DNA from: Folioceros fuciformis
Taxonomy: Eukaryota
Direction of reading: 5' to 3'
Assembly: GCA_049999805.1 (NCBI GenBank)
Contig: JBNGIO010006148.1
Coordinates: 1-64,000, forward strand
DNA: 64,000 nucleotides
A program made the position numbers and the translations under genes. Under the pieces are notes generated by a model. That model searched no databases, had not been told where the DNA came from, and worked only from the letters and a program-made list of their open reading frames with translations. Each line of letters opens with the position of its first letter. The stretch's first letter is position 1. Below are positions 1,671 to 64,000 of this stretch, piece after piece.

Positions 1671-2457
1671 AAAAGAGAAGCACTGTATTGAGCTGGGGAA
1701 GGGAAGACTGGGAGACCGTGATTGGAAGTCGCGATGAGGTGGATTGGTCCGAGGAAGCCAATGGTGAGCTACGCCGCTATTGTAGCGGGGCAGCTGTGGG
1801 AAGGTATGACGTGGGGTGAGAGCGGCCATGATACCGAGTCGCCGAGCCACACGGCAGGGCGGGCGGAGTGAGGTATTGTTGGCAGTCGAGTTGGACTTGG
1901 GATGGATTATAGCAGGACGGTAGCGGGGCAAGCGGGGGGCCTCGGTATTGGCCCGCTGCTCCGCCTTGTTAGATGCCGGTAATCGCTGCGCTACGGCTCG
2001 CCATGAGCTGTGGGGGCCGTGCGCCGGATTAAGTACGTACGGTGGCTCACTTAGCCCTTACAGCCTTCAGCCGCCGAGCATTTTATGCACCTTCCTCTTC
2101 TCACTTGCTACCGCCAACGGGAGCGCTTCTGCCTCTTCTGCACCCCCGTAGTGGTGGGCACTTGTCGATTGGCGCTTGGCGGTGACGGCCAGAAGGCTTG
2201 CGCCGAGGCTCCTCCTGGTGGTTGCTAGTGTGGCGTGGTGTGGTGTGGGGGGTTTGGCTGGTGTGGGCGTGAAGGCGTGAAGGCGTGGGTGTCCTGTTGT
2301 GTCTGAAGATTCAGAAGAAGAAGAAGACGAGCAAGAAGGAGGAGGGTGAAGAGCGGAGAGGAAAGGCGGCAAGCCCTTGACGAGGGGAAGCAGCGGCACA
2401 GCGGGTGCAGACCTGGCTCTGGCCCCGGCCAAGGCCCAAGCCCAGACAGGCGCCCAG

Positions 2458-3390
2458 ATGCCAAACGCTTCCAATGGCACCTCGCCCTGCGCAGCTTGCA
2501 AGCTGCTGCGGCGGAGGTGCGCGCCCGAGTGCGTGTTCGCCCCGCACTTCCCCGCGGAGCAGCCGCACAAGTTCGCCATAGTGCACCGGGTGTTCGGGGC
2601 CAGCAACATTAACAAGATGCTGCAGGACCTGGCCGCTGAACAGCGCGCCGACGCTGTGAGCAGCCTGGTATACGAGGCGGAGGCCAGGTTCCGAGACCCC
2701 GTGTACGGCTGCGCGGGGGCCATCGCGTCGCTGCAGCAGCAGGTGGCGCAGCTGCAGGTGCAGCTGGCGCTCGCGCAGGCGGAGACGGTGTATGCCAGGA
2801 TGCAGCAGGCGCCTACGGTCACCAACGCCTCTCACCTCAGCGTCGGCTCCAACAAGGCGCCCGCCCTCCCTGTGGGCGTCGGGGTGGGGATGCTGGGGCT
2901 GGATCACGTCGGGCTGCAACGGGCGAACGTCGCCGCGCCGGATCTGGACCTGGCGCTCGATTGCGTCTCGCCGACGCCGTTTCCGATTGCCTGCAAGAAG
3001 GAGAAACCGACCATGGGGTACCGGGAGCTACCCGCGCCAGCCAGGGATTACGGACCTTACGCTCCGGCTACAGTGACTGCCGCCTCTACTGCCGACATCA
3101 TGTGCCTGCCCGATCACGCGTCCTCAGGTTCCAGGGACCACTCCAAGGACTCGGTCATGCTGCACCCTATCTCGCTCAGCGTGGTGCGCAACAATTTCAT
3201 GCTGCCTAACGATGCTTCGCCATTCTCTGTCGACTCTGTGATGGAGCTGGGGGATATGGACATGGACGCCTCCATCAACTCAATTAACCAGATGTCGCCT
3301 CCCACGCCGCCTGGCTCTCCGGACCTGCTCAGTCCTTTCTCCAAGCCCATGTTCCAAACCACTTTTGCTCTAGGCGCTAGCCTCTGGTGA
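2458..3390 (+). CDS. LBD: LOB-domain (LBD/ASL) transcription factor, class I, intronless
   Basis: SPCAACKLLRRRC (CX2CX6CX3C), FAIVHRVFGASN GAS block, DPVYGC, leucine-zipper-like LQQQVAQLQVQL. First in-frame ATG is at 2458; the ORF track starts at an upstream TTG. Confidence 0.95.
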   Translation: MPNASNGTSPCAACKLLRRRCAPECVFAPHFPAEQPHKFAIVHRVFGASNINKMLQDLAAEQRADAVSSLVYEAEARFRDPVYGCAGAIASLQQQVAQLQVQLALAQAETVYARMQQAPTVTNASHLSVGSNKAPALPVGVGVGMLGLDHVGLQRANVAAPDLDLALDCVSPTPFPIACKKEKPTMGYRELPAPARDYGPYAPATVTAASTADIMCLPDHASSGSRDHSKDSVMLHPISLSVVRNNFMLPNDASPFSVDSVMELGDMDMDASINSINQMSPPTPPGSPDLLSPFSKPMFQTTFALGASLW

Positions 3391-15950: not shown

Positions 15951-16609
15951 CTTTCGGGAGTGGATGGGACTTTTATCTTTATCAATAAATAAATAAATAA
16001 ATAAAAAGCTCTTTACTAATAATAATTAATATAAAAACATTAATAACTAGTTTGTCAGCGCACTAGATGCATAGGAAAACAGTTGGCTGGACGGGAGGAG
16101 GAAAACAGTTGGCTGGACGGAAGGACAACAAAAGTGCAGCTGAAACATGGAAGCGGCCAAGCCCATATGGCTAGGAAAGCTCTCCAAGGAAGTTGAAAAT
16201 GGAATAACATGAAAATAAAATATGTGTGTAGCAGCAAGGCAGTCGTAGGTCATTCGTGTGAGAGAGTCACGGCGGAGCCTTAGAGGTGGCGCGAAAAACC
16301 TCGTAAATGCTAGTGGCTCCACCTGTCTCGACTCTCGAGAGCGATGAGCTCAAAGATTCCTCGTACACGACGCAACGGGTCGCCCCATCAGGCCCACGCT
16401 GCGAGCAATTGCTTTGCCGCCTGCCGATTTCTCAGTGCTCGGCCGGCCCTCCGCAATGCCAGAATTTTGAAATTGGGCGCACCCAAGCGGTTGAGACGGG
16501 CTGTAGGCTCCCCGTACCCATATGTTGGTGTCTTCGTCGCCTCTGCCTCCAGCAACAGCGGGTCTGGATGGGTAGGCATTTGGTGTGAGTGAAGGTTGCA
16601 GCTGCAACA

Positions 16610-18193
16610 ATGGTGGTAAGGCTGATGATAGGCGGCAGGTCGCTCACAGATGAGGAAGTGCTCTTCCGGCACCAGTTGCTGAAGCTCATCCAGAAGGAGA
16701 AGCTGAAGCGCTCCCTGCACCGCACCTTCGTGCCGGGTAAGGTGTTCGGGAGCGGCGACAGCTTTAAGTTCGGTGCAGTGAGACCTGCTCCTGCGCTAGG
16801 GAATGCAGCAGCAGCAGGCACGCAGTTGGTGAGCAATCCACTCTACAATTCCGCGCAGTCTCCGCAGCGCGAGCCTGATTCCCGGCCAAATCTGTCATCG
16901 GCTGGCTCTGGAGGTGTTGGTCCTGTTGAGGAGGTTTGTGACACAGCCAGGACTGCGCCGCTTGAGCAGGGTGCTCTGAGGTCCAAGGCGGGGAGGACCT
17001 CGAGCTCCTTGTTGCAGCTGATGAAGCAGAGTCATGGATCTCTTAAGCAGCTTTTCAGCAAGGAAGGGATGGTGGAAGAGGGAGGAGGGGCGGACAAGGA
17101 CGGAGCTCTAGGCACGTTGAACGGCGGGAGAAGGAGCGGAAGGCGTGCCAGGAATATGAGCGGATCTTACCAGTTTGTGACCAAGGAGGAGGCGCTAGTG
17201 CTAGATGAGCTCCGGAAAGACGAGTATCGAGATGTCAAGGTGTCTCCGTCCGGCAAAAGCACGAGATTCTTCACATTGGAGGAGAGCGGCCGACTTGTGA
17301 GCGTTGTTTGCACGGATGATGCCAAGGATGGCAAGATTGCGTCCCCGGCACCAGGGAAGGTGCTGCTCCGCGGCAGCAGCCCGCAGAGATCTGGAAAAGT
17401 GAGTCCTGAGGTGAATGATACAGAAGCCGATTCTCCGGCGGTTAAAGCTGTTGCGGATGCCAATTTGCGCGAGGATGCTTCTCTAGGGGTCTCGAGCAAT
17501 TCTCCGAGAGTGTCAGAGGGGAAGGTATCGAGATTGGATTCTCCCCGGCGAGAGGAAAATGCATTCAACAAGCAGCTTTCCAACCCCGCGTCTCCTGTAA
17601 TGCTGTGCCTCCCCAACCTCAACCTCTACGGGGACGAAAATCTCACGGTAGCTTCAGAGTTTGCTGAGATTTCTCTTAAGTATGGTATTGTGTCGTCCAA
17701 AAGTCACAGGTACGTGGTCCAGGAAGAAAGCACACACTATGAGAGCGTGACGACAAAGGAGGTGGTATTGTCCAAGGAAGTTATCTTATCCAAGGAGGTG
17801 AGCATTTCGGGCGGCAGCAAGCTCGAGAGCCTCCGGGAACATGAGTCACCGGTGCTTGCTGGCGACAGAAAATCGAAGGGCTTGGTGTCCTCGCCCACAT
17901 CTAACGGTCCCGATCATAATGCTACGAACGGCGGCAGCAGCAGCGTGGGACATAAGGATCGCAACATGGTGGAACCTGACTCTAAGCGAAGCTCGGCAAA
18001 TGCTTCTGACTCAGTGGCAGAGAAGCAAGTTACTACTGACAAGCAGCAATCTGAGGGAACTTCAAGAAGCAAGAGCAGAGGACGCAGGAGGAAGAAGGGC
18101 TCCACGCGGGTAACCAAGTCCAAGCACAAGCCTTTCAAGAAACTCTTCACCAGCACCATCCTATGCAGATGTGATTTGGATAGCATCAGCTGA
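16610..18193 (+). CDS. Intronless ~527-aa Ser/Glu/Lys-rich protein of unknown function
   Basis: 1.58-kb uninterrupted ORF with gene-like GC content and ATG in ACAATGG context. Basic C-terminus ending ILCRCDLDSIS. No domain recognised. Confidence 0.7.
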   Translation: MVVRLMIGGRSLTDEEVLFRHQLLKLIQKEKLKRSLHRTFVPGKVFGSGDSFKFGAVRPAPALGNAAAAGTQLVSNPLYNSAQSPQREPDSRPNLSSAGSGGVGPVEEVCDTARTAPLEQGALRSKAGRTSSSLLQLMKQSHGSLKQLFSKEGMVEEGGGADKDGALGTLNGGRRSGRRARNMSGSYQFVTKEEALVLDELRKDEYRDVKVSPSGKSTRFFTLEESGRLVSVVCTDDAKDGKIASPAPGKVLLRGSSPQRSGKVSPEVNDTEADSPAVKAVADANLREDASLGVSSNSPRVSEGKVSRLDSPRREENAFNKQLSNPASPVMLCLPNLNLYGDENLTVASEFAEISLKYGIVSSKSHRYVVQEESTHYESVTTKEVVLSKEVILSKEVSISGGSKLESLREHESPVLAGDRKSKGLVSSPTSNGPDHNATNGGSSSVGHKDRNMVEPDSKRSSANASDSVAEKQVTTDKQQSEGTSRSKSRGRRRKKGSTRVTKSKHKPFKKLFTSTILCRCDLDSIS

Positions 18194-26614: not shown

Positions 26615-29600
26615 CTTCACATTCGGTCCTGAGGCGTTTGCCATGGGCATGGAAAGCAAACAAAAATGAGCACTTCACTCTTCTCAGCGTCGTCAAACCG
26701 TGATGCCTGCATGCACGGTCCAGCCTCTATTCTTTCTACTCTTCTCTCTACTTTTCTCTCTCTCTCACGCTTGCTCTTCCTCACTCTCTCGCTCTCCTCT
26801 TTCCTGCACAAACACGTCCTACATTCATGCTCTGCAGTTCCCGCCCCCGCTCCCAGCAAGAACAGGCTACACAGTGTCACCACTTGTCTCAAACAACTCG
26901 TAGACCTCCAACAGACAACTCGCTCTGTGTGGACAGCCGTGGGCCAAGAAAGAGCCAGCAAGCTCACTTTCATCCGTCCAGAAGCCATGGCCAAGGACGA
27001 CAACAGACGAGAGCGGTCCAGACACCAACACCTTGGAGACTCAAAGACATCCATCCTCACCTCCGAAGGACAGCAAAAAACAACCAACTCTGCTGCCTCC
27101 ACTTCTGACAGATCGGGAAACTGCGGCAGGGACAAAAAATACATCTGCACCCCACTCAACCACCCACACACACAGCCAAACAGAAATCCCAGCAAGAACC
27201 TCTTCAGCAGCAGCAGAATCAAGATCATGTCACATACAGCACAACAATCCACAACTTCCACGCATCTCCCCATTCCACTCTCACCCGACCACACACGAAA
27301 CCAACAAAGCCGCGGAGGCAAGCACCCCAAGATCCCCTTCATTCCATTCCTACTCCCCTGTCCTAACAAGCAGATTCAAAGCAGCTTCAGACACACTCAC
27401 AACAGACAAAGGCTCCCTGTACGCTCAGCTCCAGCCCCACCCCGGCCACCCCGCAACTCCCCCACCCCTCCCCCCGGACCCAGATCATCACACGTTACCC
27501 TCGTCACACTCGTCTGTCTGCCTGTCTGTCACCCTCGCCTTCCTTCCCTCACCCTCCTTCCTCCCCCAGCTCTCGTCACATGACACTCCTCACGCCTGCT
27601 GCGCTCTATCCCTCTGCCGGGCCGGTACAGGCCTGCCTCCAGCCTCGCAACAGTCTCACACGCTCCTTTTGTGCGTCCTCTTCCACCGGCCATGCATCAA
27701 CCACCGCTTCCTCCTTTCTGCTCTCCGACGCCCTGCTCCCTCCACCAATTTTGGTACTGCGAGGTTCTGCCAGCCAGCCAGCAAGCCAAGCGTCTGGTGG
27801 CCCCCTATACTCCAATTTCCTCCCACAGCTCCTCCTTCCTTGCTGTTGCGTGTTTGTGTGCCAGGACCCCGCACTCCTACCTCCCTCAGCTTCACTGCTA
27901 CGTGGTGTTCGCTAAGTTGTCTCGTGTCATCTTTCAGGCTCATACGTCACACTATATACCAAACTCCTTTTCAAACACTCATTACCCTAACAGCATCCTG
28001 GCTAATCCCTCGAAACATCCTCTAACTATCATCACCATCTATGCACCCAATTCAATTATTCAAAGAAGAATTTATCACAGTCTACTTGTGGGCAGACCCT
28101 CTTCAGTATAACCTAATTTAATCTAACCTAACCTAATTTAATTTAACCTAGTCTAACCTAACCTATTTGACTTTCTATATAGATTCTTGAAAATAATTAG
28201 ACTAATAAGATTCTTCTTAGATTTCTATGACTCCTTCATGTATCCTCATTACTAACATCTAGAATACATAGACCGTCAACCCTAAACCTAGGCCCTATCG
28301 TGTTTGCAGCTCAAAGTCATATAATAGAATAACTATACAGGCAAGAAAGAAAAAGACTCTACAAGTTAAATGTCTACTAGCTGTCCAACCACTAGCTGTG
28401 AAGTTTGCCAAAAGACCTATTACTTGCCATCAGCATGCACACTTACATATGCTAGCTTCTCCATGTCTTTGGACTAACTAACTATCTTCATACAATGCAA
28501 CCAAAGGCTCTTCTTCACCCACATTCCTCAAGTTTGTTTCCTCCAAGTCTTCGTCAACTTTTCACAATGAATTGGCACTTCGCAACACACCAAAAGAAAG
28601 CTCTTGATCACCAGCAATAGAGTCTTTGGCACCCACTAAATATCTTCACCATCACTACTTGAGTTCTTAAGATAGCTCACATTAACTATATCACGCCGGG
28701 ATGGGAGTGTAGTGGTCCTAATAAATGTGTGTGTACTTGTGTACCACATTATTTTCAGCCACACAGGGCACCATATGTCCTATTAGACAAGCAAGGGGCA
28801 CTAATTGTGTAGATTGACAAGCACTATGGTGCCTTGTGCTCAATCGCACCAGCCATGAGGAGGCTTAGGCATCGCACAGCACATGCGGTGTCGACTAGGG
28901 GCCCAGCGGTGAAGGCGGGGACTTAGACATTGCAGCTCGAGGCCGAGGGATGGGGGGCTTAGGAAGGGCCTTAAGCACTAGATGTTTAATGCCCACAAAT
29001 CGTGGTGCACATTCGATACTTGAGGCTACTAGGTCATAGTGAAGGCGGAAATGGGGTATGGCAACCCTCGACGCGTGCACGCAGCTAAGAACCTGGAGTA
29101 ACCGGCCTTGGTCTCGGCTAGTGCACGCAGCTAGGGAGTCGGAGTAATCGGCCTCGGCCTCACCTAAATAGCACTGTAGGATGTGTGGCGATGTTTGGAT
29201 TAGACGAAATGACATAATCTTGGGTATATCCACAAAAAATTAAGGAATTGTAGTTTGTGTTATAAACAACTGCATATAGCCAGGTTGAACAAGTGCATGA
29301 AGCAACAAACACTCCAAGTTGTTGAATCATAGAAGCAATTACTACTTTAATGCTCCTTGGGTTGTCCAAGCCATCCGCATTACATGCCTTCATAATATAA
29401 CAAGTTACTTTATCAAAGATGCAAAATGCTTCATAAAATGATAACTAACTACGTCAATCTTCTACGACAATACTTTTATCAAATCTATATGAAGTATGCT
29501 TACATTCAATTTTCTAGTGTTTCGCTAGCTAATTTTGTCACCCAATCACCTTAAGGTTTATCCCGCAATGTCAATTTCTTACATTCTGTAGAAACACATT

Positions 29601-32948: not shown

Positions 32949-34937
32949 TTAGGCTGTTGCCTTCTTGTACTTATCCCTCAACTCAGAATACTTCCTCATG
33001 CACTCTGTCTTTGTCTTCCCAGGGACCTCCACAGTGATTTTCTCCCACCTACGGTCAGTACCCTTGGGGAAATTCTTTGCGGCCACGACAAGAGCATGAG
33101 TCTGCATCTCCGACCATCCGTCATGATCCGCCACACCAATATTGCCCTGTTCGGACACCTCTACGGACGTCTTTCCATTAGAAGGACTCTTGGCGACACC
33201 ATTCTCAACTACTTTGACGTCTTTCTTAGAAGTCCCACTTCTTGTAGTCTCATTGTCAAGGTCATCCCTGGTAGAGAGTGGCGAATCAATTACAACACCT
33301 GAAATCTTCGGATTCGACCTAAATGAATCAAACGGTTTTGAAGAGTCCGGCTTCTGCTGTAAGCTAGTCTTCACAGCTCTGGTGATCTCCTCTGCTGATC
33401 GTCCAGTTCCTAGGTAGGTAGAAACCACCTCCCATCGCTGTGACGTTCCCTTCGGATATTTACCTACGGCCTTGCGCAACAGGTGTAACTCCTCCTTCGA
33501 CCAAGGCCTTTCCTTTTTCACCGCATTCGAAGCAGCAGCAGACGCCTTCTTCTCTGCGCAAACTTTGGGAGACTCTGAAATCGAAGGCACCTGTTTGACA
33601 TCACCTGCACCACCGCCATCACTGCGGCCCTGCTCGTGCACTGTGCGCCCATTTTCAAAAACAGGGTCTTTTCCCAGAAGAAGACGTGCCTGCTCAGCAA
33701 CATTGTTGCTCCCTTCCAGCCTTTCACAAAGCTGTCTCAATTGAGTTATTTCCAAACTCATACAGAGGTCCTCAACCATATCGTCCAAAATTCCGAGGTC
33801 TTTCCGGCCAACCAATCCAGCAGCAGCAGCGCGCAACCGAGCTCTCTCTTTCCTGACCAACTTCTTCTCCTTTTCCCTAATCTTCTTCAGGGCCGCCGCT
33901 TCTTCAGCTGCCTTCTTCTCTTCCTCCTCTTTCTTCCTCCTCTCCTCTTCTACAACCCTGGCGGCTTCCTCCTCCTTCTCTCGCCTAGCTTGATCCTTTG
34001 CCTGCTTCTTCCGCAACTTCTCAGCTTTCTCCTGTTCTTTCCTTCGCGAAACTCGAGGATCCTTCTTATACGCATTCTCCACCATTACCCTAATCCTACT
34101 GTTTTCTTCCTTCTTCGCCTTTTCCCGGAGCTTAGAGTTCTGCCTCTCCATCCATCTCCTATGCTCTCGATTCTCCGCTTGCTCAAGATCAAACTCATCT
34201 GCGTGAGGGAACTCCCGCCAACTTCTGAAACCCCACCAGAAGTCGTAGAAAGCATCAACCTCCTGCATGGAGGTATTGTCCTCTCCCAGAGGGGGTACTG
34301 GCTGTACAACCGACCACCGGCCATTCCTCATAAACACAGGTGAATAAACCTTGAAAAAATCCTCCGGAGCGCAGTCGTCAGGAATCTCGTCGTCGAACTC
34401 ATCAATGGAATCATACACCCTGCGTTTGGCAGGGTCAATGAGAACCTCATAGGCCTCTTGAATGGACTTGAAATGCTTATCAATCTCCTCCTTCTTGGCC
34501 TCCTTCCCCTCCTCTGTCTCCTCCGTCAGCAGGAGGGCGGCCTGCTTATCAGGATGATGCTTCAGCGCAGCTTCCCTGTAAGCTTTCCTGATTTGCTCCT
34601 CAGTAGCCAGGAACCGAACATGAGCTAGGCCCAGGAGAGCATAATGGTCCTGCTGATCACCCGCCGACCCAGACTTCTTCTTCCCCTTGGACTGGTAGGA
34701 GTCAACGGATGGAGACGAGGTCTTCTCCTTCTTGTCAGAGACCGCATCCTCCTCACTGTCGCCATCCAACTTGTCCAGTCCCAGCTGCCGAAGCGCGGCA
34801 GCATGGAAGGCGGCGCCAGCTGGCTCAAAGCCAGCAGCCTGAATTGGGAGGGAGTTGGAAGCTACATGCAGAGGAAGCCATTCAGCAAGATCTGTTGGAT
34901 AGGTCAAACAACGCAGCTGGTTCTTAGGAGCCAGCAT
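32949..34937 (-). CDS. ZRF1: DNAJC2/zuotin/ZRF1-like protein, GC-rich copy, intronless
   Basis: MLAPKNQLRCLTY start at ATG 34937, EPAGAAFH, DHYALLGL...KHHPDK, FYDFWWGFRSWREF, two SANT domains. Confidence 0.95.
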   Translation of the reverse strand: MLAPKNQLRCLTYPTDLAEWLPLHVASNSLPIQAAGFEPAGAAFHAAALRQLGLDKLDGDSEEDAVSDKKEKTSSPSVDSYQSKGKKKSGSAGDQQDHYALLGLAHVRFLATEEQIRKAYREAALKHHPDKQAALLLTEETEEGKEAKKEEIDKHFKSIQEAYEVLIDPAKRRVYDSIDEFDDEIPDDCAPEDFFKVYSPVFMRNGRWSVVQPVPPLGEDNTSMQEVDAFYDFWWGFRSWREFPHADEFDLEQAENREHRRWMERQNSKLREKAKKEENSRIRVMVENAYKKDPRVSRRKEQEKAEKLRKKQAKDQARREKEEEAARVVEEERRKKEEEEKKAAEEAAALKKIREKEKKLVRKERARLRAAAAGLVGRKDLGILDDMVEDLCMSLEITQLRQLCERLEGSNNVAEQARLLLGKDPVFENGRTVHEQGRSDGGGAGDVKQVPSISESPKVCAEKKASAAASNAVKKERPWSKEELHLLRKAVGKYPKGTSQRWEVVSTYLGTGRSAEEITRAVKTSLQQKPDSSKPFDSFRSNPKISGVVIDSPLSTRDDLDNETTRSGTSKKDVKVVENGVAKSPSNGKTSVEVSEQGNIGVADHDGWSEMQTHALVVAAKNFPKGTDRRWEKITVEVPGKTKTECMRKYSELRDKYKKATA

Positions 34938-35128
34938 GGCGACGCCTGTGGCCGTATCAATCGAGGCCGGCAACTCCAACACGATTGCACGACCAACCCT
35001 GTACAAATCCAGCCAACATGTTTAGCCGACAACCGTTCCCACAGGATGCTTGCCCGGCGCTCTGCAATTGCTATTCCTCAGCAACTCTCTTTCCGCCTGA
35101 CCGGTTCAAGGGTCTTCCCAAATAAACT

Positions 35129-49753: not shown

Positions 49754-52700
49754 TCATGCTGAACAAGCGGCTTCAAGAGAAGTGCGAGCAAGCCACAACA
49801 ATCCTGGATCGTTTCTTCTTAAAACTAGAAATTCCGGAGAGGTCTCGCCTGCTCCTTCTTCGGACTCCCCATCAGTGAACCCCACGGCAGCAAGGAACTC
49901 CAGTGCACCTGCAAGGAGATTCGGATGATCATCGGAGTGCTTGTGGAATACTCGCGCAAGGACTATTCAACATCCAAAATTTCCTTGACGTCAGAACATA
50001 CCTTCGTACTGCCCAACTAGTTGCACGAAGGTAGGATTGGTCTGAGAAAAAATAAAACGAAGCATCCACAGTCAGAACGAGAACCATGTCAGGGCAACAC
50101 TGTATCCGAAGACATACTGACTCCAGTGTACCTAGCAATTTACATGGGGGCAGCAGCATGTCACCCGTTCACACCGACACAACACCAGCAGTCCAGTGGC
50201 CAGAAGCACGGGCAACACATTCAAAACTTGCACCAACCTTTCTGAGACGCCGAAACTTGCGGTCATTTGGATGCTCAGTGACGTTCCTGCGTCACCAGGT
50301 GAACCATGAGTGCTTCGCCAGCTTGATCATTTGCCACGTAAGAAGCAACATACACAAACCTTAGAATTCTTGACAGTGTCTGAGCCGACATGACCGCTCT
50401 TGATGCACCAGCTTGTTGTTTTAACCTCTCTAATGCCTCCGCAAGACGGAGGCTTGCTGCTGTCGTGACTTCCTGTATTCTCCTCAGCTCCATGCCATAT
50501 AAGTCAGCTTCAACAACAGTCATGCTGCTGTCATCAGGATCAGGCTCATGGCTTCGTTTTGATCCTGAAAGTCCTCCACCTGACTCCACTCTGTGGCTGA
50601 CGTCCATATTACCAGGGATAGATTCAGAGCCATCATGAGACTGAGGCTCTGAAACTCGCATCTCAGTGTCATCACGATCCGATTCCAGCCTCAACTTGAC
50701 AACAGCATCATCCGGACCAGGCTCGGACGCAAGCAGCTCAGTGTCATCAGGATCAGGTTCTAGTCTAAGCTTGGAAACAGCGTCATCCGGATCAGGTTCT
50801 AGTCTCAGTTTGGAAATAGCGTCATCCGGATCAGGTTCTAGTCTCAGCTTGGAAACAGCGTCATCCGGNNNNNNNNNNTCATCCGGATCAGGTTCTAGTC
50901 TCAGCTTGGAAACAGCGTCATCCGGATCAGGTTCTAGTCTCAGCTTGGAAACAGCGTCATCCGGATCAGGCTCAGACATCAGCAATTCACTATCCTCAGG
51001 ATAAGGTTCTAGTCTCAACTGAACAGGAGCCCTAGGCTCCAAAGCCTGCAGTCCGCTAGCATCAGGATCAGGCTCTGACCTTGACTTCGAATCAGCATCC
51101 TTGGGATCAGTAGCAAATCTGACCATTTCCACGTCGTCCGGATCAGGTTCTGACCTCAATAGTTCAGAGGAATCATTGGGATCAGTCTTAGATCTGACCA
51201 TTTCTACGTCGTCCGGATCAGGTTCTGACCTCAATTGTTCTGAGCAATCATCGGGATCAGGCTCTGACCGCAGTTGTTCCAAAGCATCATCAGGATCAGG
51301 CTCCACTCTCAGAGGTTGAAACGGAGACTGAGTGTTGATCTGAGTACGAGCGCCATCCTTTTCTTCCCGTACAGGCTCCAACCTGACATGCTCGGTCAGA
51401 TCCAGGATGCTATCAAAGTTATCTCCACCACCAACTGCCCCAAGCCCTTCACCTAGTACTGTCACTGTCTCTCCCTTTCCATGTTTCTGTCGGTAATCTG
51501 ACTCTTCCAGTCGCTCTTCCATGGGATAGTTCGTGTCTGCAGGTTCAGTCCAACCGAAGCCGGCAGATCTGTGCAAAGCAGCTCTAGCAGCAGCCTCTGA
51601 GGGGACTACAAATTGAGTAGATCTGTCGCCCCCTAAAATGTGAACCTTACTAGTTCCAGCAGCACCTGAATCGGAAGGCACTGGGTCATAGCCCTTACGA
51701 CCAGCCAGATTGTGACTGAAAGACCTTGTCCAGTCTAAAGCAATTGCTTCTTCATTGAGCTGTGAAGGAGTTGCAATACGACAGAACACCAACAATATAT
51801 GTAAGCAACCACTACAAATTGAGCGCAACGAGCAGGCACAGATGAAAGCTAATTATCTCAAGACAAAAACTTGCTTAGAGAATGATCGAGCTCGAATGCG
51901 ACACCTGTTTGTCCAGCGCATGAAAGTGCTCGTCATGTTCGTCATGTACCATGTGCGCCTGCATGGAAAGAGGCCCAAGTTACTGTACATGTCTTGCAAG
52001 AAACAAACTTTGAGAGTACACCATGGATGGACATAGGAAGGAACTCTACCAGCTCATGCAGAAGAGTCTTTTTGATACTTTCATACTTCCGGAACCCTTT
52101 CAAATCATCGGTCCGGAGTCGCAAAGATATTTCGTCTCCACGGTTCTTCACAGGACAACAGCTCTCAAATAAGTGTTGACTTGAAAATCCAGAAAAAAAC
52201 TTGTCACGACATCATTCACACTTGAACATCAAGCTCAGAGACCTAGATATCACACGACTAAAATTCGTGACCTCCCTCAGCGGCTTACTTTATTGAAGCC
52301 TAGTAGACATTTGGGACTGATTCCAACATAACCGACAGGGGCCAGCTCCGTCATGACTCCAACCGTCCACCGGTGCTGTTGCAGCAAGGAGAACGCCATC
52401 AGTTTCCTTCACATGAAACATGTTGAGGGCAAACCTAGCGGTGGCCGAGCAAGAACCGGAAATACCTTGTTCATAATGGCGACGATACCGTGATCACTGG
52501 CGAGCCTATGCATGATCTCCAACGCTTTTGACGGTGGCGGGTTCAACTGTAACCCAACTTTGGTACTCAGCAACGAGCAGGGGAATCACTTCCGCGAAAA
52601 CGGTAAAAGCAACAGAGAAATACCAACCTCTATGCCAGGAAGCTGTAAAGTACGGAAATCATTGAACACATAAGAACCCCTCGGGAGCGGATTCCCAGCG

Positions 52701-59729: not shown

Positions 59730-59809
59730 TATATAAATGCACTGTGCCTGCAATAAGCTTGATTGACTCCAGTCAAGGTAGCTCTCAAATTTTGGAGTCA
59801 GGCTTGACT
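59730..59809. promoter_or_regulatory. TATA-like box plus W-box (TTGACY) cluster
   Basis: TATATAAA at 59730-59737; TTGACT at 59763 and 59804; AGTCAA at 59771; AGTCA at 59796. Confidence 0.5.
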
Positions 59810-60358
59810 CCATTCAAGCAAGTACTCATGTAGAGCACTGCTTCCAAAAATTCATGAAGTCGCTCGGTCTGATTCTGAAGGTTGTACGTGGGCAGGGTAC
59901 CGGTCTGAAGATAGTGTGAACTGTTTTGTCTCTGGATTTCAGTCCATAGCCATTGTCAGTCTCTCGCTTTGTCTCGCTGATCAACACACCCCAATTTTGG
60001 ACCCTTTCTTTCTAAGAGATTTCGCCGTTACGTTATGTTACGTTACGTTAGGCTTTGGAGTTTGTGATAGTGTGAAAAAGAGGTGCCAGTTTGGACACCC
60101 TTGCGGAGCTGAAAATGAACGGTATTAATTTTAGAGGATGCCTTAATGAAAATGAATTCAGCGATGAGCTGACGCATGCTGTACGCGGAAGACCCCGCCG
60201 TGGAAAGTGGATGATCCAGATCGGGCTCGCATGCTTGGGTTGTCAAGTCGGCAATGTTGTTGGCAGGCAATGGAACCGACTCTCATCGCTGTTTTCGAGG
60301 ATATTGCGCCAAGTGAGGAGCAGTGGTGGTGGTTTGGGTGCATAGATGTGTGTGCGGC

Positions 60359-62893
60359 ATGATGCAAACGAGACGGGTCTCCGTTATCCCCATTGCGAAT
60401 TGGTGCAGGTGTTTCTCGACCCTGCGAGCGGAGACAAGCATACTGGGAAGCAGCCGAGGTGAATGATCCCCGCTCGGATCTGGAGTATGTTTCTCAGTGT
60501 TGAAGCGGTTCTGAACCTTACGCTGTTGTTTCGTGGTGTGATTCAGTTGAAGAAATTAAAGGGCATCTTCGTACGGAAGGTGTTGGTGCATCTCGTCCGC
60601 CGGGGTGGAAGAAGGTGGTGAGCGAATTGTTGTACGGGACAGGCACAGCAAGAGAGAAGTGTCATGACAGGTATGTTACTTGGACTCAGCCATGAGGTTT
60701 ACTTTGCTCTGATTTTACTGAGGTCCTGAATGCGTGATGTGTGACATTGCCCGTTGCCTGGATCTTTGCAACTAGTGAAGGGGTGATTCTTGGAGCGAAC
60801 TGTGCGAGGAGGGCCAGCTGGCTGGGGCCTTCCAGGCCTTGACCTGCGTTGAACATGAAGGGATGCATGTCTCCATAGACTTGTTGTATCGCCTTGTTAA
60901 GTGGTGCATTGCCAACCAGGATGTGGTGGCTGGCAGGCGTGTCCATTCTCTTGTCGTGAGTAGTGGATATGTGTCGAATGCATACCTTGCCAACCATATA
61001 ATCCGCATGTATGCTTCGTATGGCAGTTTACAGGAGGCGAGACAAGTGTTCATCCAACTGTCTGCACCTGACAGGTTTGTTTGGGGGTCTATCATTTCAG
61101 CGCATGTTGAGCATGGAGAAGCTAAGCAGGCTATACACTTGTACAATCAAATGCGATTATCTAAGGTCAAGCCAAATGATTATGTGTATGTGGCTACTCT
61201 CAAAGCGTGTGCCAATGTAGGTGATTTGGCCTCCGGCAGAGCAATACACACTGATGTCGTTGACAGTGGATACGACACGAACATATTTGTAGGGACTGCT
61301 CTTGTGGACATGTACACCAAATTGGGCATGGTAGAGGATGCTCGCAGAGTTTTTGACATGTTGCCAAACAAGAATGTGGTCACATGGAGTACTATAATAG
61401 CAGGGTATGTGCATCATGGGCAAGGTCAAGAAGCTCTTAATCTCCATGAAAGCATGCAACGGGACAAAGTGATACCAGATGTGGTGGCCTTTCTGTCTCT
61501 TCTGAAGGCGTGCACCTGTGTAGGAGCCATACAGAAGGGCAAGCAGATTCATGCGGAGATTCTGGATCAAAGGATGGAAAGTGACATCTCAATTGGGAGT
61601 ACATTAGTGGACATGTATGCAAAATCTGGGAATCTGGATGATGCTCGATCATTCTTTGACCGGATGTCCTCCAGGAACATTGTGACATGGAGTGCTTTGA
61701 TTTCAGGCTATGCCCATCATGAGCTTGGGAATGAAGCCCTCATTTTGTATGAGAAAATGCGAAGCATAGGCATGACTCCGGACAGGGTGACCTATGTCTG
61801 CACTCTGAAGGCATGTGCTAGCGTAGGGGCCATACACAAAGGCAAGGGAATTCATGCAGAGATCTTAGGGAGAGGACTGGAGGCTGATGTGTTTGTTGGA
61901 AATACCCTAGTGGACATGTATGGACGGAATGGATATCTGACAGATGCTCGCAACGTGTTTGATAGACTGCCCACTAAAGATGTGGTGACATGGAATGCTT
62001 TAATTAACAGCTACGGTCAACACAACAGCTGTGAAATGGCAACCCAATGTTTTGAGACGATGCGGCGACATGGAGTTGAGCCCAATGGTGCCACTTTTGC
62101 ATGTCTTCTCGTTGCCTGCAGTCATGCTTCTTTGGTGGATGAGGGTCAGAGAATTTTCGATATGATGGAGGAGAATTATGGCATTTCTCCTACAGTCGAA
62201 CATTATACCTGCATGGTGGATCTTCTTGGGCGGTCAGGACGCTTGGACGAGGCAGAAAGTCTATTGCAAACTATCCCACTTGAGAGTAGCAGTGTGGCTT
62301 GGATGTCTCTGCTCAGTGCCTGTAAAAGTCACGGAGATGTTGATCGAGGAAAGCGGTCTTTTGACAAATTTGTAGGACTGGAACCCAAGGATGCAGGGGC
62401 TTATGTACTTATGTCGAGTATCTATGCTAGTGCAGGGAGGTGGGACGATTTGAAGGAAATCGAAAGCGTCAGAAGGTGCACTGGTGCTTACAAGAAGGCT
62501 GCAAAGACATGGATCGAGGTTGACAATCAGGTGCACGAGTTTGTAGTCGGGGAAGACCGTGGCGATACAGCTTTGAGAATGAAGGGTTTACATGCGAGGC
62601 TGAAGGAGAGTGGGCATGTGCCCCAAACTGAGTTGGTGTTGAAGCCAATATCGGATCGGCAAAAGGAAGACGCCCTCTGTGGGCACGCTGAGAAGTTAGC
62701 TTTGGCGTATGGTCTTCTGAACACTCGAGAAGGCAAGACTTTGTTGGTGACAAAAAATCTCAGGATGTGCGACGATTGCCACAGTGGCACAAAAATACTT
62801 TCACGTGTAGAAAAGCGCGACATCATAGTTAGAGATTCATACCGAGTCCATCATTTTAAGGACGGATTCTGTACGTGCAAAGATTCGTTGTAG
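60359..62893 (+). CDS. PLS-class PPR protein with E1-E2 and DYW:KP-like domain, probably mitochondrial; candidate U-to-C RNA editing factor
   Basis: 14 PLS motifs, CGHAEKLALAYGLLNT, VTKNLRMCDDCH, ends CTCKDSL. Two upstream exons (60359-60458, 60547-60670) splice in frame to 60781 and encode MMQTRRVSVIPIANWCRCFST. Confidence 0.92.
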
Positions 62894-63183
62894 GCAAAAT
62901 TTCACACCCGCTGAACACATTTGATTCGGACGTGGGGAAGTCTCTGCCAGTTAGTTGTCGACGTAAGAACTCGAAAACAGGTACATGACGGTGAAGCCGG
63001 ACAAAACATGTACCAATGTGGCAAAGGTTTAGCTATCTCTTCAGTCCAAATTGGACTACTGCCGAGAGACCTGACTACATCCACCTAGAGCAGAAGCCGA
63101 GCTGTTCTCAAATGCCCCTGCCAGAATTCAAACGAAACCTCCTGCAGTTGCTATTTACAAAAACGACTTCAGACAAAGGAACT

Positions 63184-64000
63184 CTATGGCGTATAGTCAA
63201 AGGGCTCCGGTGGGGGAGGTTCACAGTCGTCTACGGCCATAGCAGTATCGGAGGAGGTGTCTGGAGGTGCTGGGGGCGCCCCTCCTGAGCTCGGCGCAGC
63301 AGCAGACACCGGCGAATCACTGGATACCAATTCAACAGGCTCTGATGGGTTCGTGTCTCTCAACATCACAAATCCTGAAGATGCCCTCTTCAAGGGCTGA
63401 TACCGACAGGCCTCTGGAAATCTGATGTATTTCTCTTGTGCGGGGACAACCCTGGCTGGGTTGTTGAGCACTTCAATAGCGGAATCAACATCTGCACCTT
63501 TCTTCTCAACACCTGTGTCCACCTGCACATAAAGAGGACGCAATGCATTATTTGCCCGAGCTCTCCTCAATCTCCTCAGCACTGGCTGGATAGGAACCAC
63601 AAACGCTACCTCCATTGCATCATCCTTCCCAGTTGTAGCGGCAGATTCCTCAGCAGATGCAGAAGAACTTTCCCCTGCCACTGCAGCTGCCGACGAGCCC
63701 TTAGCCTCAGGATGAGGAGATGAACTACCCTCCTGTGCCAATGCTTTGCTGGTTGCTGCCTTTGAATCGCTTTCTTTCTTTGCCCTCACTTTAGCCCTGG
63801 CTGATGTAGACAGCACTGCAGTTGGCAGCTTGATTGCTGAAGTAGTTGTCGGGGGTGCTGTAGATGGAGGATACCCAAACATAGCAGGGGGAGCCTCCGA
63901 GACGAACTTGAACTTTGGCATGCGAAGTTCCGAATTCAGGCCAATAAACGCCGTCGGCGCAAATGAGAGGCTGATGAAATATATCAGGGGGTACCAATAC
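63184..64000 (-). CDS. RPN2: 26S proteasome regulatory subunit RPN2, 3' end (truncated by the window edge)
   Basis: [62 protein letters not shown]. One intron at about 63524-63610. Confidence 0.93.

Follow-up and report, generated by a model that had tools for sequence, protein, structure and literature searches.

Does the locus at positions 60359-62893 of this DNA from Folioceros fuciformis encode a natural U-to-C RNA-editing factor? On its forward strand, the window (the whole 64,000-nucleotide stretch that was analysed) carries there a gene for a pentatricopeptide repeat (PPR) protein ending in a deaminase-like domain, which a preliminary description had taken for a DYW:KP-type candidate for reverse editing. 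We put the probability that the gene encodes an organellar PPR editing factor of the DYW:KP class, a putative U-to-C editor, at about 70%, a judgement drawn from sequence and from analogy with synthetic KP proteins. The cited sections of PMC9478123, PMC11845758 and PMC12548569 describe the class as candidate U-to-C factors, and the link between HAEKLA-type DYW:KP domains and U-to-C editing that the preliminary description had stated is found in these sources.

The deaminase-like domain and its class

The 684-residue open reading frame (ORF) at 60839-62893 (+), which is opened by an internal TTG and ends in CTCKDSL, has Pfam matches to PPR_2 (1.9e-68), PPR (3.5e-65), E_motif (4.3e-11) and DYW_deaminase (PF14432, 3.8e-34, ORF residues 592-683), all far above chance. 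The motifs quoted in the preliminary description, namely KKAAKTWIEV, GHVP, CGHAEKLA, TLLVTKNLRMCDDCH and the CTCKDSL end, are all present. The HxE and CxxC zinc ligands, said there to be intact, are so (H65, E67, C93 and C96 in domain numbering), and the column tally shows that the second zinc site (H97, H120, C127 and C129) is conserved too. By their offsets from H892, E894, C920 and C923 of OTP86 (numbering as in PMC7611903, in part), residues H65, E67, K88, C93 and C96 match, and Lys88 corresponds to K915.

In the cited sections of PMC11845758 and PMC9478123, DYW:KP domains are marked by Lys-Pro in place of Pro-Gly in the N-terminal box, by Ala or Cys in place of Ser after the catalytic His, by loss of the xHP triplet (132-133 residues versus 136) and by a variable C-terminal triplet, and are confined to hornworts, lycophytes and ferns. 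DRH and GRP endings are hornwort variants according to PMC9478123, also cited in part.

To compare the window domain with its relatives, we drew on 67 domain-region matches, the best 150 of 2495 representatives (E<=1e-3) and the best 120 full-length matches, from which 200 full-length DYW domains were extracted, the window domain included. When sorted by features, 45 lack the PG pair and xHP and carry HAE, the window domain among them; 73 have PG, HSE and xHP, and the remainder are mixed. A quick IQ-TREE tree of 117 rows and 137 columns was built from all 87 rows that are not PG-type, together with 30 rows drawn at random from the 113 PG-type ones. Here the window row belongs to a clade of 49 rows (SH-aLRT 93) in which all 45 HAE/no-xHP rows are found, and which is part of a clade of 71 rows (SH-aLRT 95) that leaves out 29 of the 30 sampled PG-type rows. 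Within it, a 35-row subclade (SH-aLRT 86) unites the window row with DRH- and GRP-ending rows, while a separate 12-row clade (SH-aLRT 97) includes the sole KP-type row that carries a name, that of the fern Ceratopteris richardii. Numerous forks of the tree are unresolved, and no starred branch of half the rows or fewer encloses the window row.

Furthermore, a profile of 44 KP-type rows gives the window domain 220.1 bits, and one of the 113 PG-type rows gives it 165.6 bits; the profiles are home-made and the groups are defined by the same features, so that the tree and profile test is partly circular. Feature tally, tree and profile scores agree in assigning the domain to DYW:KP and not to DYW:PG, as the preliminary description had proposed, and no clustering with canonical DYW:PG is seen.

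The column tallies show where the two classes part. Position 66 is Ala in 43 of 44 KP-type rows and Ser in all 113 PG-type rows. Position 4, in the box K-K-A-A-K-T-W-I-E, is Ala in the window as in 41/44 KP-type rows, and Gly in 100/113 PG-type rows. In total, the window domain is in the KP state at 4 (A), 42 (H), 63-64 (CG), 66 (A), 84-87 (LLVT), 92 (M) and 119 (V), it has Lys88 as do 44/44 KP-type rows, and an alignment gap stands opposite the N-H-P or S-H-P of PG-type rows, i.e. the xHP triplet is absent. The four canonical DYW:PG marks (PG box, HSE, xHP and D-Y-W end) are found throughout in the named moss, liverwort, lycophyte (Diphasiastrum), Ginkgo and angiosperm rows, and the window domain has none of the four. 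Judged by these features, the domain belongs to the hornwort type of the DYW:KP class in every respect except the literal Pro, and the protein is, on its sequence, an ordinary member of a large known family with nothing mechanistically distinctive.

A mixed DYW class was also observed (P0026, P0042, P0044, P0052, P0073, P0082, P0095, P0111 and others), which has a K-P-G or K-P-A box, keeps xHP, carries HCE, HSE or HAE and non-DYW ends, and takes a place in the tree between the PG-type and the HAE/no-xHP rows. A possible counterpart is the lycophyte type of 136 residues (KP4) named in the cited section of PMC9478123.

Among known systems, the closest are the hornwort DRH and GRP proteins, the basis of the designer proteins KP1-KP3 (Gerke et al. 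2020 and Gutmann et al. 2020, cited via part of PMC9478123). They have the PLS-E1-E2-DYW architecture and the 133-134-residue domain in common with the window protein, and share the K-K-x-A box without Gly, GHVP, CGHAEKLA, LLVTKNLRMC, V119, the lack of xHP, and Lys88. Domain identity to the window is 58-70% (best 70%, among the matches listed). They differ in that the window has Ala3, K-T-W-I-E where most have K-A-C-I-E, S116-Y117 in place of A-H, and a D-S-L end. Fern DYW:KP domains (Ceratopteris richardii KP509_04G106200, P0041; basis of the designer protein KP6) share HAE, Lys88, the variable end and the lack of both PG and xHP, but are only ~52% identical over the domain, form the separate 12-row clade, have E64 and R85 instead of G64 and L85, and end in aromatic residues (DIF, DMF), unlike the window. 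Canonical DYW:PG proteins (OTP86, 7o4e; DYW1, 7w86; synthetic PPR-DYW, 9kfx) belong to the same Pfam family (PF14432) and have the same HxE..CxxC arrangement, zinc sites and Lys. In contrast to the window protein, they have the PG pair, HSE, F119 and the D-Y-W end, and their xHP triplet, inside the gating domain, makes the domain 3-4 residues longer; they carry out C-to-U deamination. A sequence search of the PDB returned three distinct chains (E 2.4e-38 to 1.1e-29), PG-type by name or alignment; the two with printed alignments are clearly PG-type.

The nearest rows, P0001 (69%) and P0002 (64-66% domain identity), have the same K-T-W-I-E box and odd endings. It is worth stating, as a very unlikely proposal, that the window protein, P0001 and P0002 could represent a further DYW:KP sub-lineage of hornworts, the third after DRH and GRP, with a different catalytic balance. 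Its putative traits are the K-T-W-I-E box and ends that vary freely, and the name-giving Pro is also missing from the window protein and P0002; the three rows are not resolved as a clade in the tree. If the proposal were true, the sub-lineage could edit both ways or lean towards C-to-U, and would offer a short-array natural test for editing direction.

The spliced gene, its leader and its N-terminus

The preliminary description had added two small 5' exons to the ORF, and both are real. Joined to exon 3 (Table 1), they give a frame that is open for 778 codons with compatible phases, as derived from the sequence. To check splicing, public contigs were aligned to window positions 59800-63300. 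Contig X3 record 15 aligns without mismatch on 60169-60456, 60545-60668 and 60779-61997, and skips 88 and 110 nucleotides at the modelled introns, with a 2-nucleotide 'AG' ambiguity of placement, while the DNA contig X1 record 1 is continuous over 59800-61997. Run X3 bears the organism label of the probable source, and X14 and X4 bear two other organism labels; all three are guessed to be RNA runs, no matching run being on record as RNA. We treat X3 as RNA-derived because its contig is without both introns that the DNA contig keeps. The end of exon 1 and both introns are confirmed by the spliced contig, and the gene is expressed.

In addition, X14 record 9 and X4 record 20 skip the same two introns and are colinear with the window through exon 3, from which they differ at 179/2110 and 140/2105 nucleotides, respectively (~92% identical). 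Related species thus have orthologues that are expressed and contain these two introns. The N-terminal exons of X14 record 9 differ from the window at 27/203 nucleotides, with 2 gaps, and at 21/118 nucleotides, i.e. a divergence of 13-18% in both exons (60230-60670) against 8.5% in exon 3 (60779-62888). Our reading of the joints is that the replaced stretches differ in length by 9 and 3 nucleotides, both multiples of three. This is the pattern that a weakly constrained coding N-terminus would show. The orthologue alignments end at 62888 (X14) and 62878 (X4) and are followed by 146-147 unlike letters; the X14 alignment breaks only a few bases away from the stop codon, and the C-termini of close species may therefore not be alike.

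These data bear on the possibility that we are dealing with a paralogue in decay or without function, from a large family with rapid turnover, which we regard as highly improbable. In hornworts the family has very many members (PMC13386178 and PMC12548569, in the parts cited), the window domain has lost its name-giving Pro and has an unusual terminus, the leader contains upstream ATGs, and the protein collections yielded no orthologue, the best full-length identity being 54% among the best 120 matches listed. Against decay, the long frame remains open through all three exons, an RNA-type contig shows it spliced, the contigs of the two other labels keep the introns, with N-terminal indels in X14 that are multiples of three, and all catalytic residues are intact.

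The leader has six upstream ATGs (60176, 60211, 60231, 60254, 60270 and 60346), which open short ORFs of 12-44 codons. They may exert translational control, or transcription may start further downstream than the contig indicates. Two of the upstream ORFs run into the main start codon (window 60176-60362), and the one from the ATG at 60346 overlaps the main start and terminates just past the first splice junction.

The N-terminus of the spliced protein is basic and Ser/Thr-rich, with no acidic residue up to position 24 and the first at 25; by composition count, residues 1-35 include 5 basic, 2 acidic and 8 Ser/Thr residues. The R-C-F-S-T string noted in the preliminary description is present at residues 17-21 and recalls the R-x-F/S-T cleavage motif. 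A choice of mitochondria over plastids would be overstated, its sole basis being this motif.

Target recognition, editing direction and competing functions

The motif parse gives a gap-free array in the order L1-S1, three P1-L1-S1 triplets, P2-L2-S2, E1, E2 and DYW, with canonical PPR motif lengths (35/35/31 and 35/36/32) and ~106 residues before it. A truncated P-like motif lies immediately upstream of the array. The residue pairs at positions 5 and last of the P and S motifs are ND, GN, TN, SD, SN, SD, ND and NN, with T/S for S2. With S2 set at -4, the PPR code, as we assume it to apply here, reads U(-16), a weak preference at -15, A(-13) G(-12) A(-10) G(-9) U(-7) Y(-6). By our own arithmetic and with equal base use assumed, seven fixed bases and one pyrimidine correspond to ~3e-5 per position, and therefore to a dozen or more chance matches per few hundred kilobases of organelle DNA; matches that frequent mean that the PPR code alone cannot name the target site. 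Thus, the residue pairs given in the preliminary description are reproduced, while the motif that it derived from them is too short to specify a site.

In the mechanism that we propose, the protein would come from an expressed, single-copy gene in the nucleus of a land plant, most likely a hornwort, and its N-terminal 20-70 residues would take it into mitochondria or plastids. There, the P and S repeats would bind approximately U(-16).. A(-13) G(-12). A(-10) G(-9). U(-7) Y(-6), and the DYW:KP domain would turn the uridine that lies four nucleotides 3' of the base aligned with S2 into cytidine. Specifically, amination would depend on Lys88 in the zinc/glutamate site and proceed through a transient crosslink to the base, as in synthetic KP proteins. 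In such proteins, U-to-C amination via a protein-RNA crosslink is described in parts of PMC11332814 and PMC11845758, and the activity requires Lys88 according to the latter.

Several points weigh against this reading. As of February 2025, the cited part of PMC11845758 knows of no natural DYW:KP protein with demonstrated activity or with an assigned editing site, and later literature searches, which do not extend to subscription journals, listed no demonstration of such activity. The fern-based designer KP6 edits both ways, and three substitutions shift its direction either way (PMC11845758, in part). The U-to-C target of the window protein is a predicted motif only, organelle import is likewise a putative property, predicted from N-terminal composition, and the six upstream ATGs may limit translation, or the main start site may lie further downstream. 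The domain itself departs from the consensus of its class: position 3 is Ala and not the name-giving Pro, positions 6-7 are T-W where most KP-type rows have A-C, positions 116-117 are S-Y where the majority have A-H, and the D-S-L terminus occurs in 0/44 of the sampled KP-type relatives. Position 3 is Pro in only 32 of the 44 KP-type rows (4 have Ala and 8 another residue), so that Lys-Pro describes the consensus of the class and is not a fixed pair. The terminus, which the preliminary description had singled out as atypical, is uninformative, because the 44 KP-type rows carry 29 different endings, among them DSP, DSI, DSF, DKL and DDL; variable C-terminal triplets are also ascribed to the class in the cited part of PMC11845758.

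The departures within the domain also touch on editing direction. We consider it unlikely that the protein is an organellar editing factor whose domain acts in vivo as a C-to-U deaminase or works both ways. Such an activity would find all residues for deamination in place (His, Glu and two Cys). KP6 has both activities, and its C-to-U editing is raised by E64G/L113V/F133H (PMC11845758, in part); the window has G64 and V113 and keeps the canonical W-I-E, whose W occurs in 5/44 KP-type versus 71/113 PG-type rows. However, G64 and V113 are the majority state in DRH/GRP-type relatives (32/44 and 33/44, respectively), the hornwort-based designers KP2 and KP3 are reported as U-to-C editors, Lys88, which restrains C-to-U editing in KP proteins, is present, and the domain clusters with KP-type and not with PG-type rows. 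A reading of editing direction from the KP6 positions 6, 64, 113, 116, 119 and 133 was considered and rejected; the hornwort-type majority already has G64, V113 and V119.

It is distinctly unlikely, in our estimate, that the protein binds organellar RNA without editing it. It would then help to stabilise, process or translate the RNA, or lend its specificity to a catalytic domain that another protein provides in trans. Roles other than editing are numerous among PPR proteins, DYW and DYW:KP donors that act in trans have been proposed for ferns (PMC12548569, in part), and the lack of a demonstrated activity for any natural KP protein (PMC11845758, in part) would fit such a role. Yet both zinc sites, Glu67 and Lys88 are invariant in 44/44 KP-type rows, which argues for selection on catalysis, and the protein is full-length with a domain of its own, through which the orthologues of the two related labels are colinear.

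Neighbouring genes and implications

The window is land-plant nuclear DNA, as indicated by its LOB-domain gene and its spliced genes. The DRH and GRP endings among the nearest relatives of the PPR domain, and the separate position of the fern row, point indirectly to a hornwort, as these nearest matches bear no taxon labels. Table 1 lists the features of the PPR gene together with its annotated neighbours.

Table 1. Features of the window, with positions counted from its first letter
Feature	Position	Strand	Basis
5' leader, minimum extent	60169..60358	+	start of spliced contig X3 record 15; ATG list
Coding exon 1: start codon, N-terminal region, putative organelle presequence	60359..60458	+	first in-frame ATG past in-frame stop
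Intron 1, 88 nt, GT..AG	60459..60546	.	absent from X3 record 15, kept in DNA contig X1 record 1
Coding exon 2, 124 nt, linker without recognisable domain	60547..60670	+	splice sites; spliced contig
Intron 2, 110 nt, GT..AG	60671..60780	.	splice sites; spliced contig
Coding exon 3 and stop: PPR array, E1, E2, entire DYW domain	60781..62893	+	ORF, Pfam
PLS-type PPR array, gap-free	60875..62290	+	residues 107-578 of spliced protein; motif parse, Pfam PPR
E1 (34 aa) and E2 (33 aa) PPR-like motifs	62291..62491	+	Pfam E_motif 4.3e-11; parse
DYW:KP-type deaminase-like domain, 133 aa	62492..62890	+	Pfam, tree, profiles, column tallies
H65-A66-E67: zinc-binding His, catalytic Glu; Ala replaces canonical Ser	62684..62692	+	domain numbering
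Lys88 in KNLRMC	62753..62755	+	domain numbering; K915 of OTP86 by offset
C93-D-D-C96 zinc ligands	62768..62779	+	domain numbering, column tally
C-terminal D-S-L and TAG stop	62882..62893	+	ORF translation
LOB (lateral organ boundaries) domain ORF	2350-3390	+	Pfam E 2.9e-41
Tandem zuotin-like ORFs, intron-poor, 675 and 690 aa	29874-31901, 32949-35021	-	DnaJ, zuotin homology domain, Myb
RPN2 proteasome-subunit gene, 3' end	63184-63999	-	Pfam RPN2_C 8.3e-42

The RPN2 gene is convergent with the PPR gene, and 290 bp separate the two stop codons (62893-63184). RNA-type contigs X3 record 18, X14 record 9 and X4 record 20 span both genes, which may reflect an antisense overlap of the 3' ends or merged assemblies. 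Elsewhere in the window, the tandem zuotin-like ORFs look like a local gene duplication, and the frames at 16589-18193 (+), 50275-51852 (-) and 26904-28025 (+), of 534, 525 and 373 residues, have no Pfam match at E<=0.001. No further PPR gene was found among the seven long window ORFs scanned, a scan that is not exhaustive.

According to the cited part of PMC11845758, U-to-C editing has so far been shown only with consensus-designed KP proteins. With its confirmed exons, expression evidence, eight informative repeats and intact active site, the gene described here would be usable as a natural test object for the activity of the DYW:KP class.

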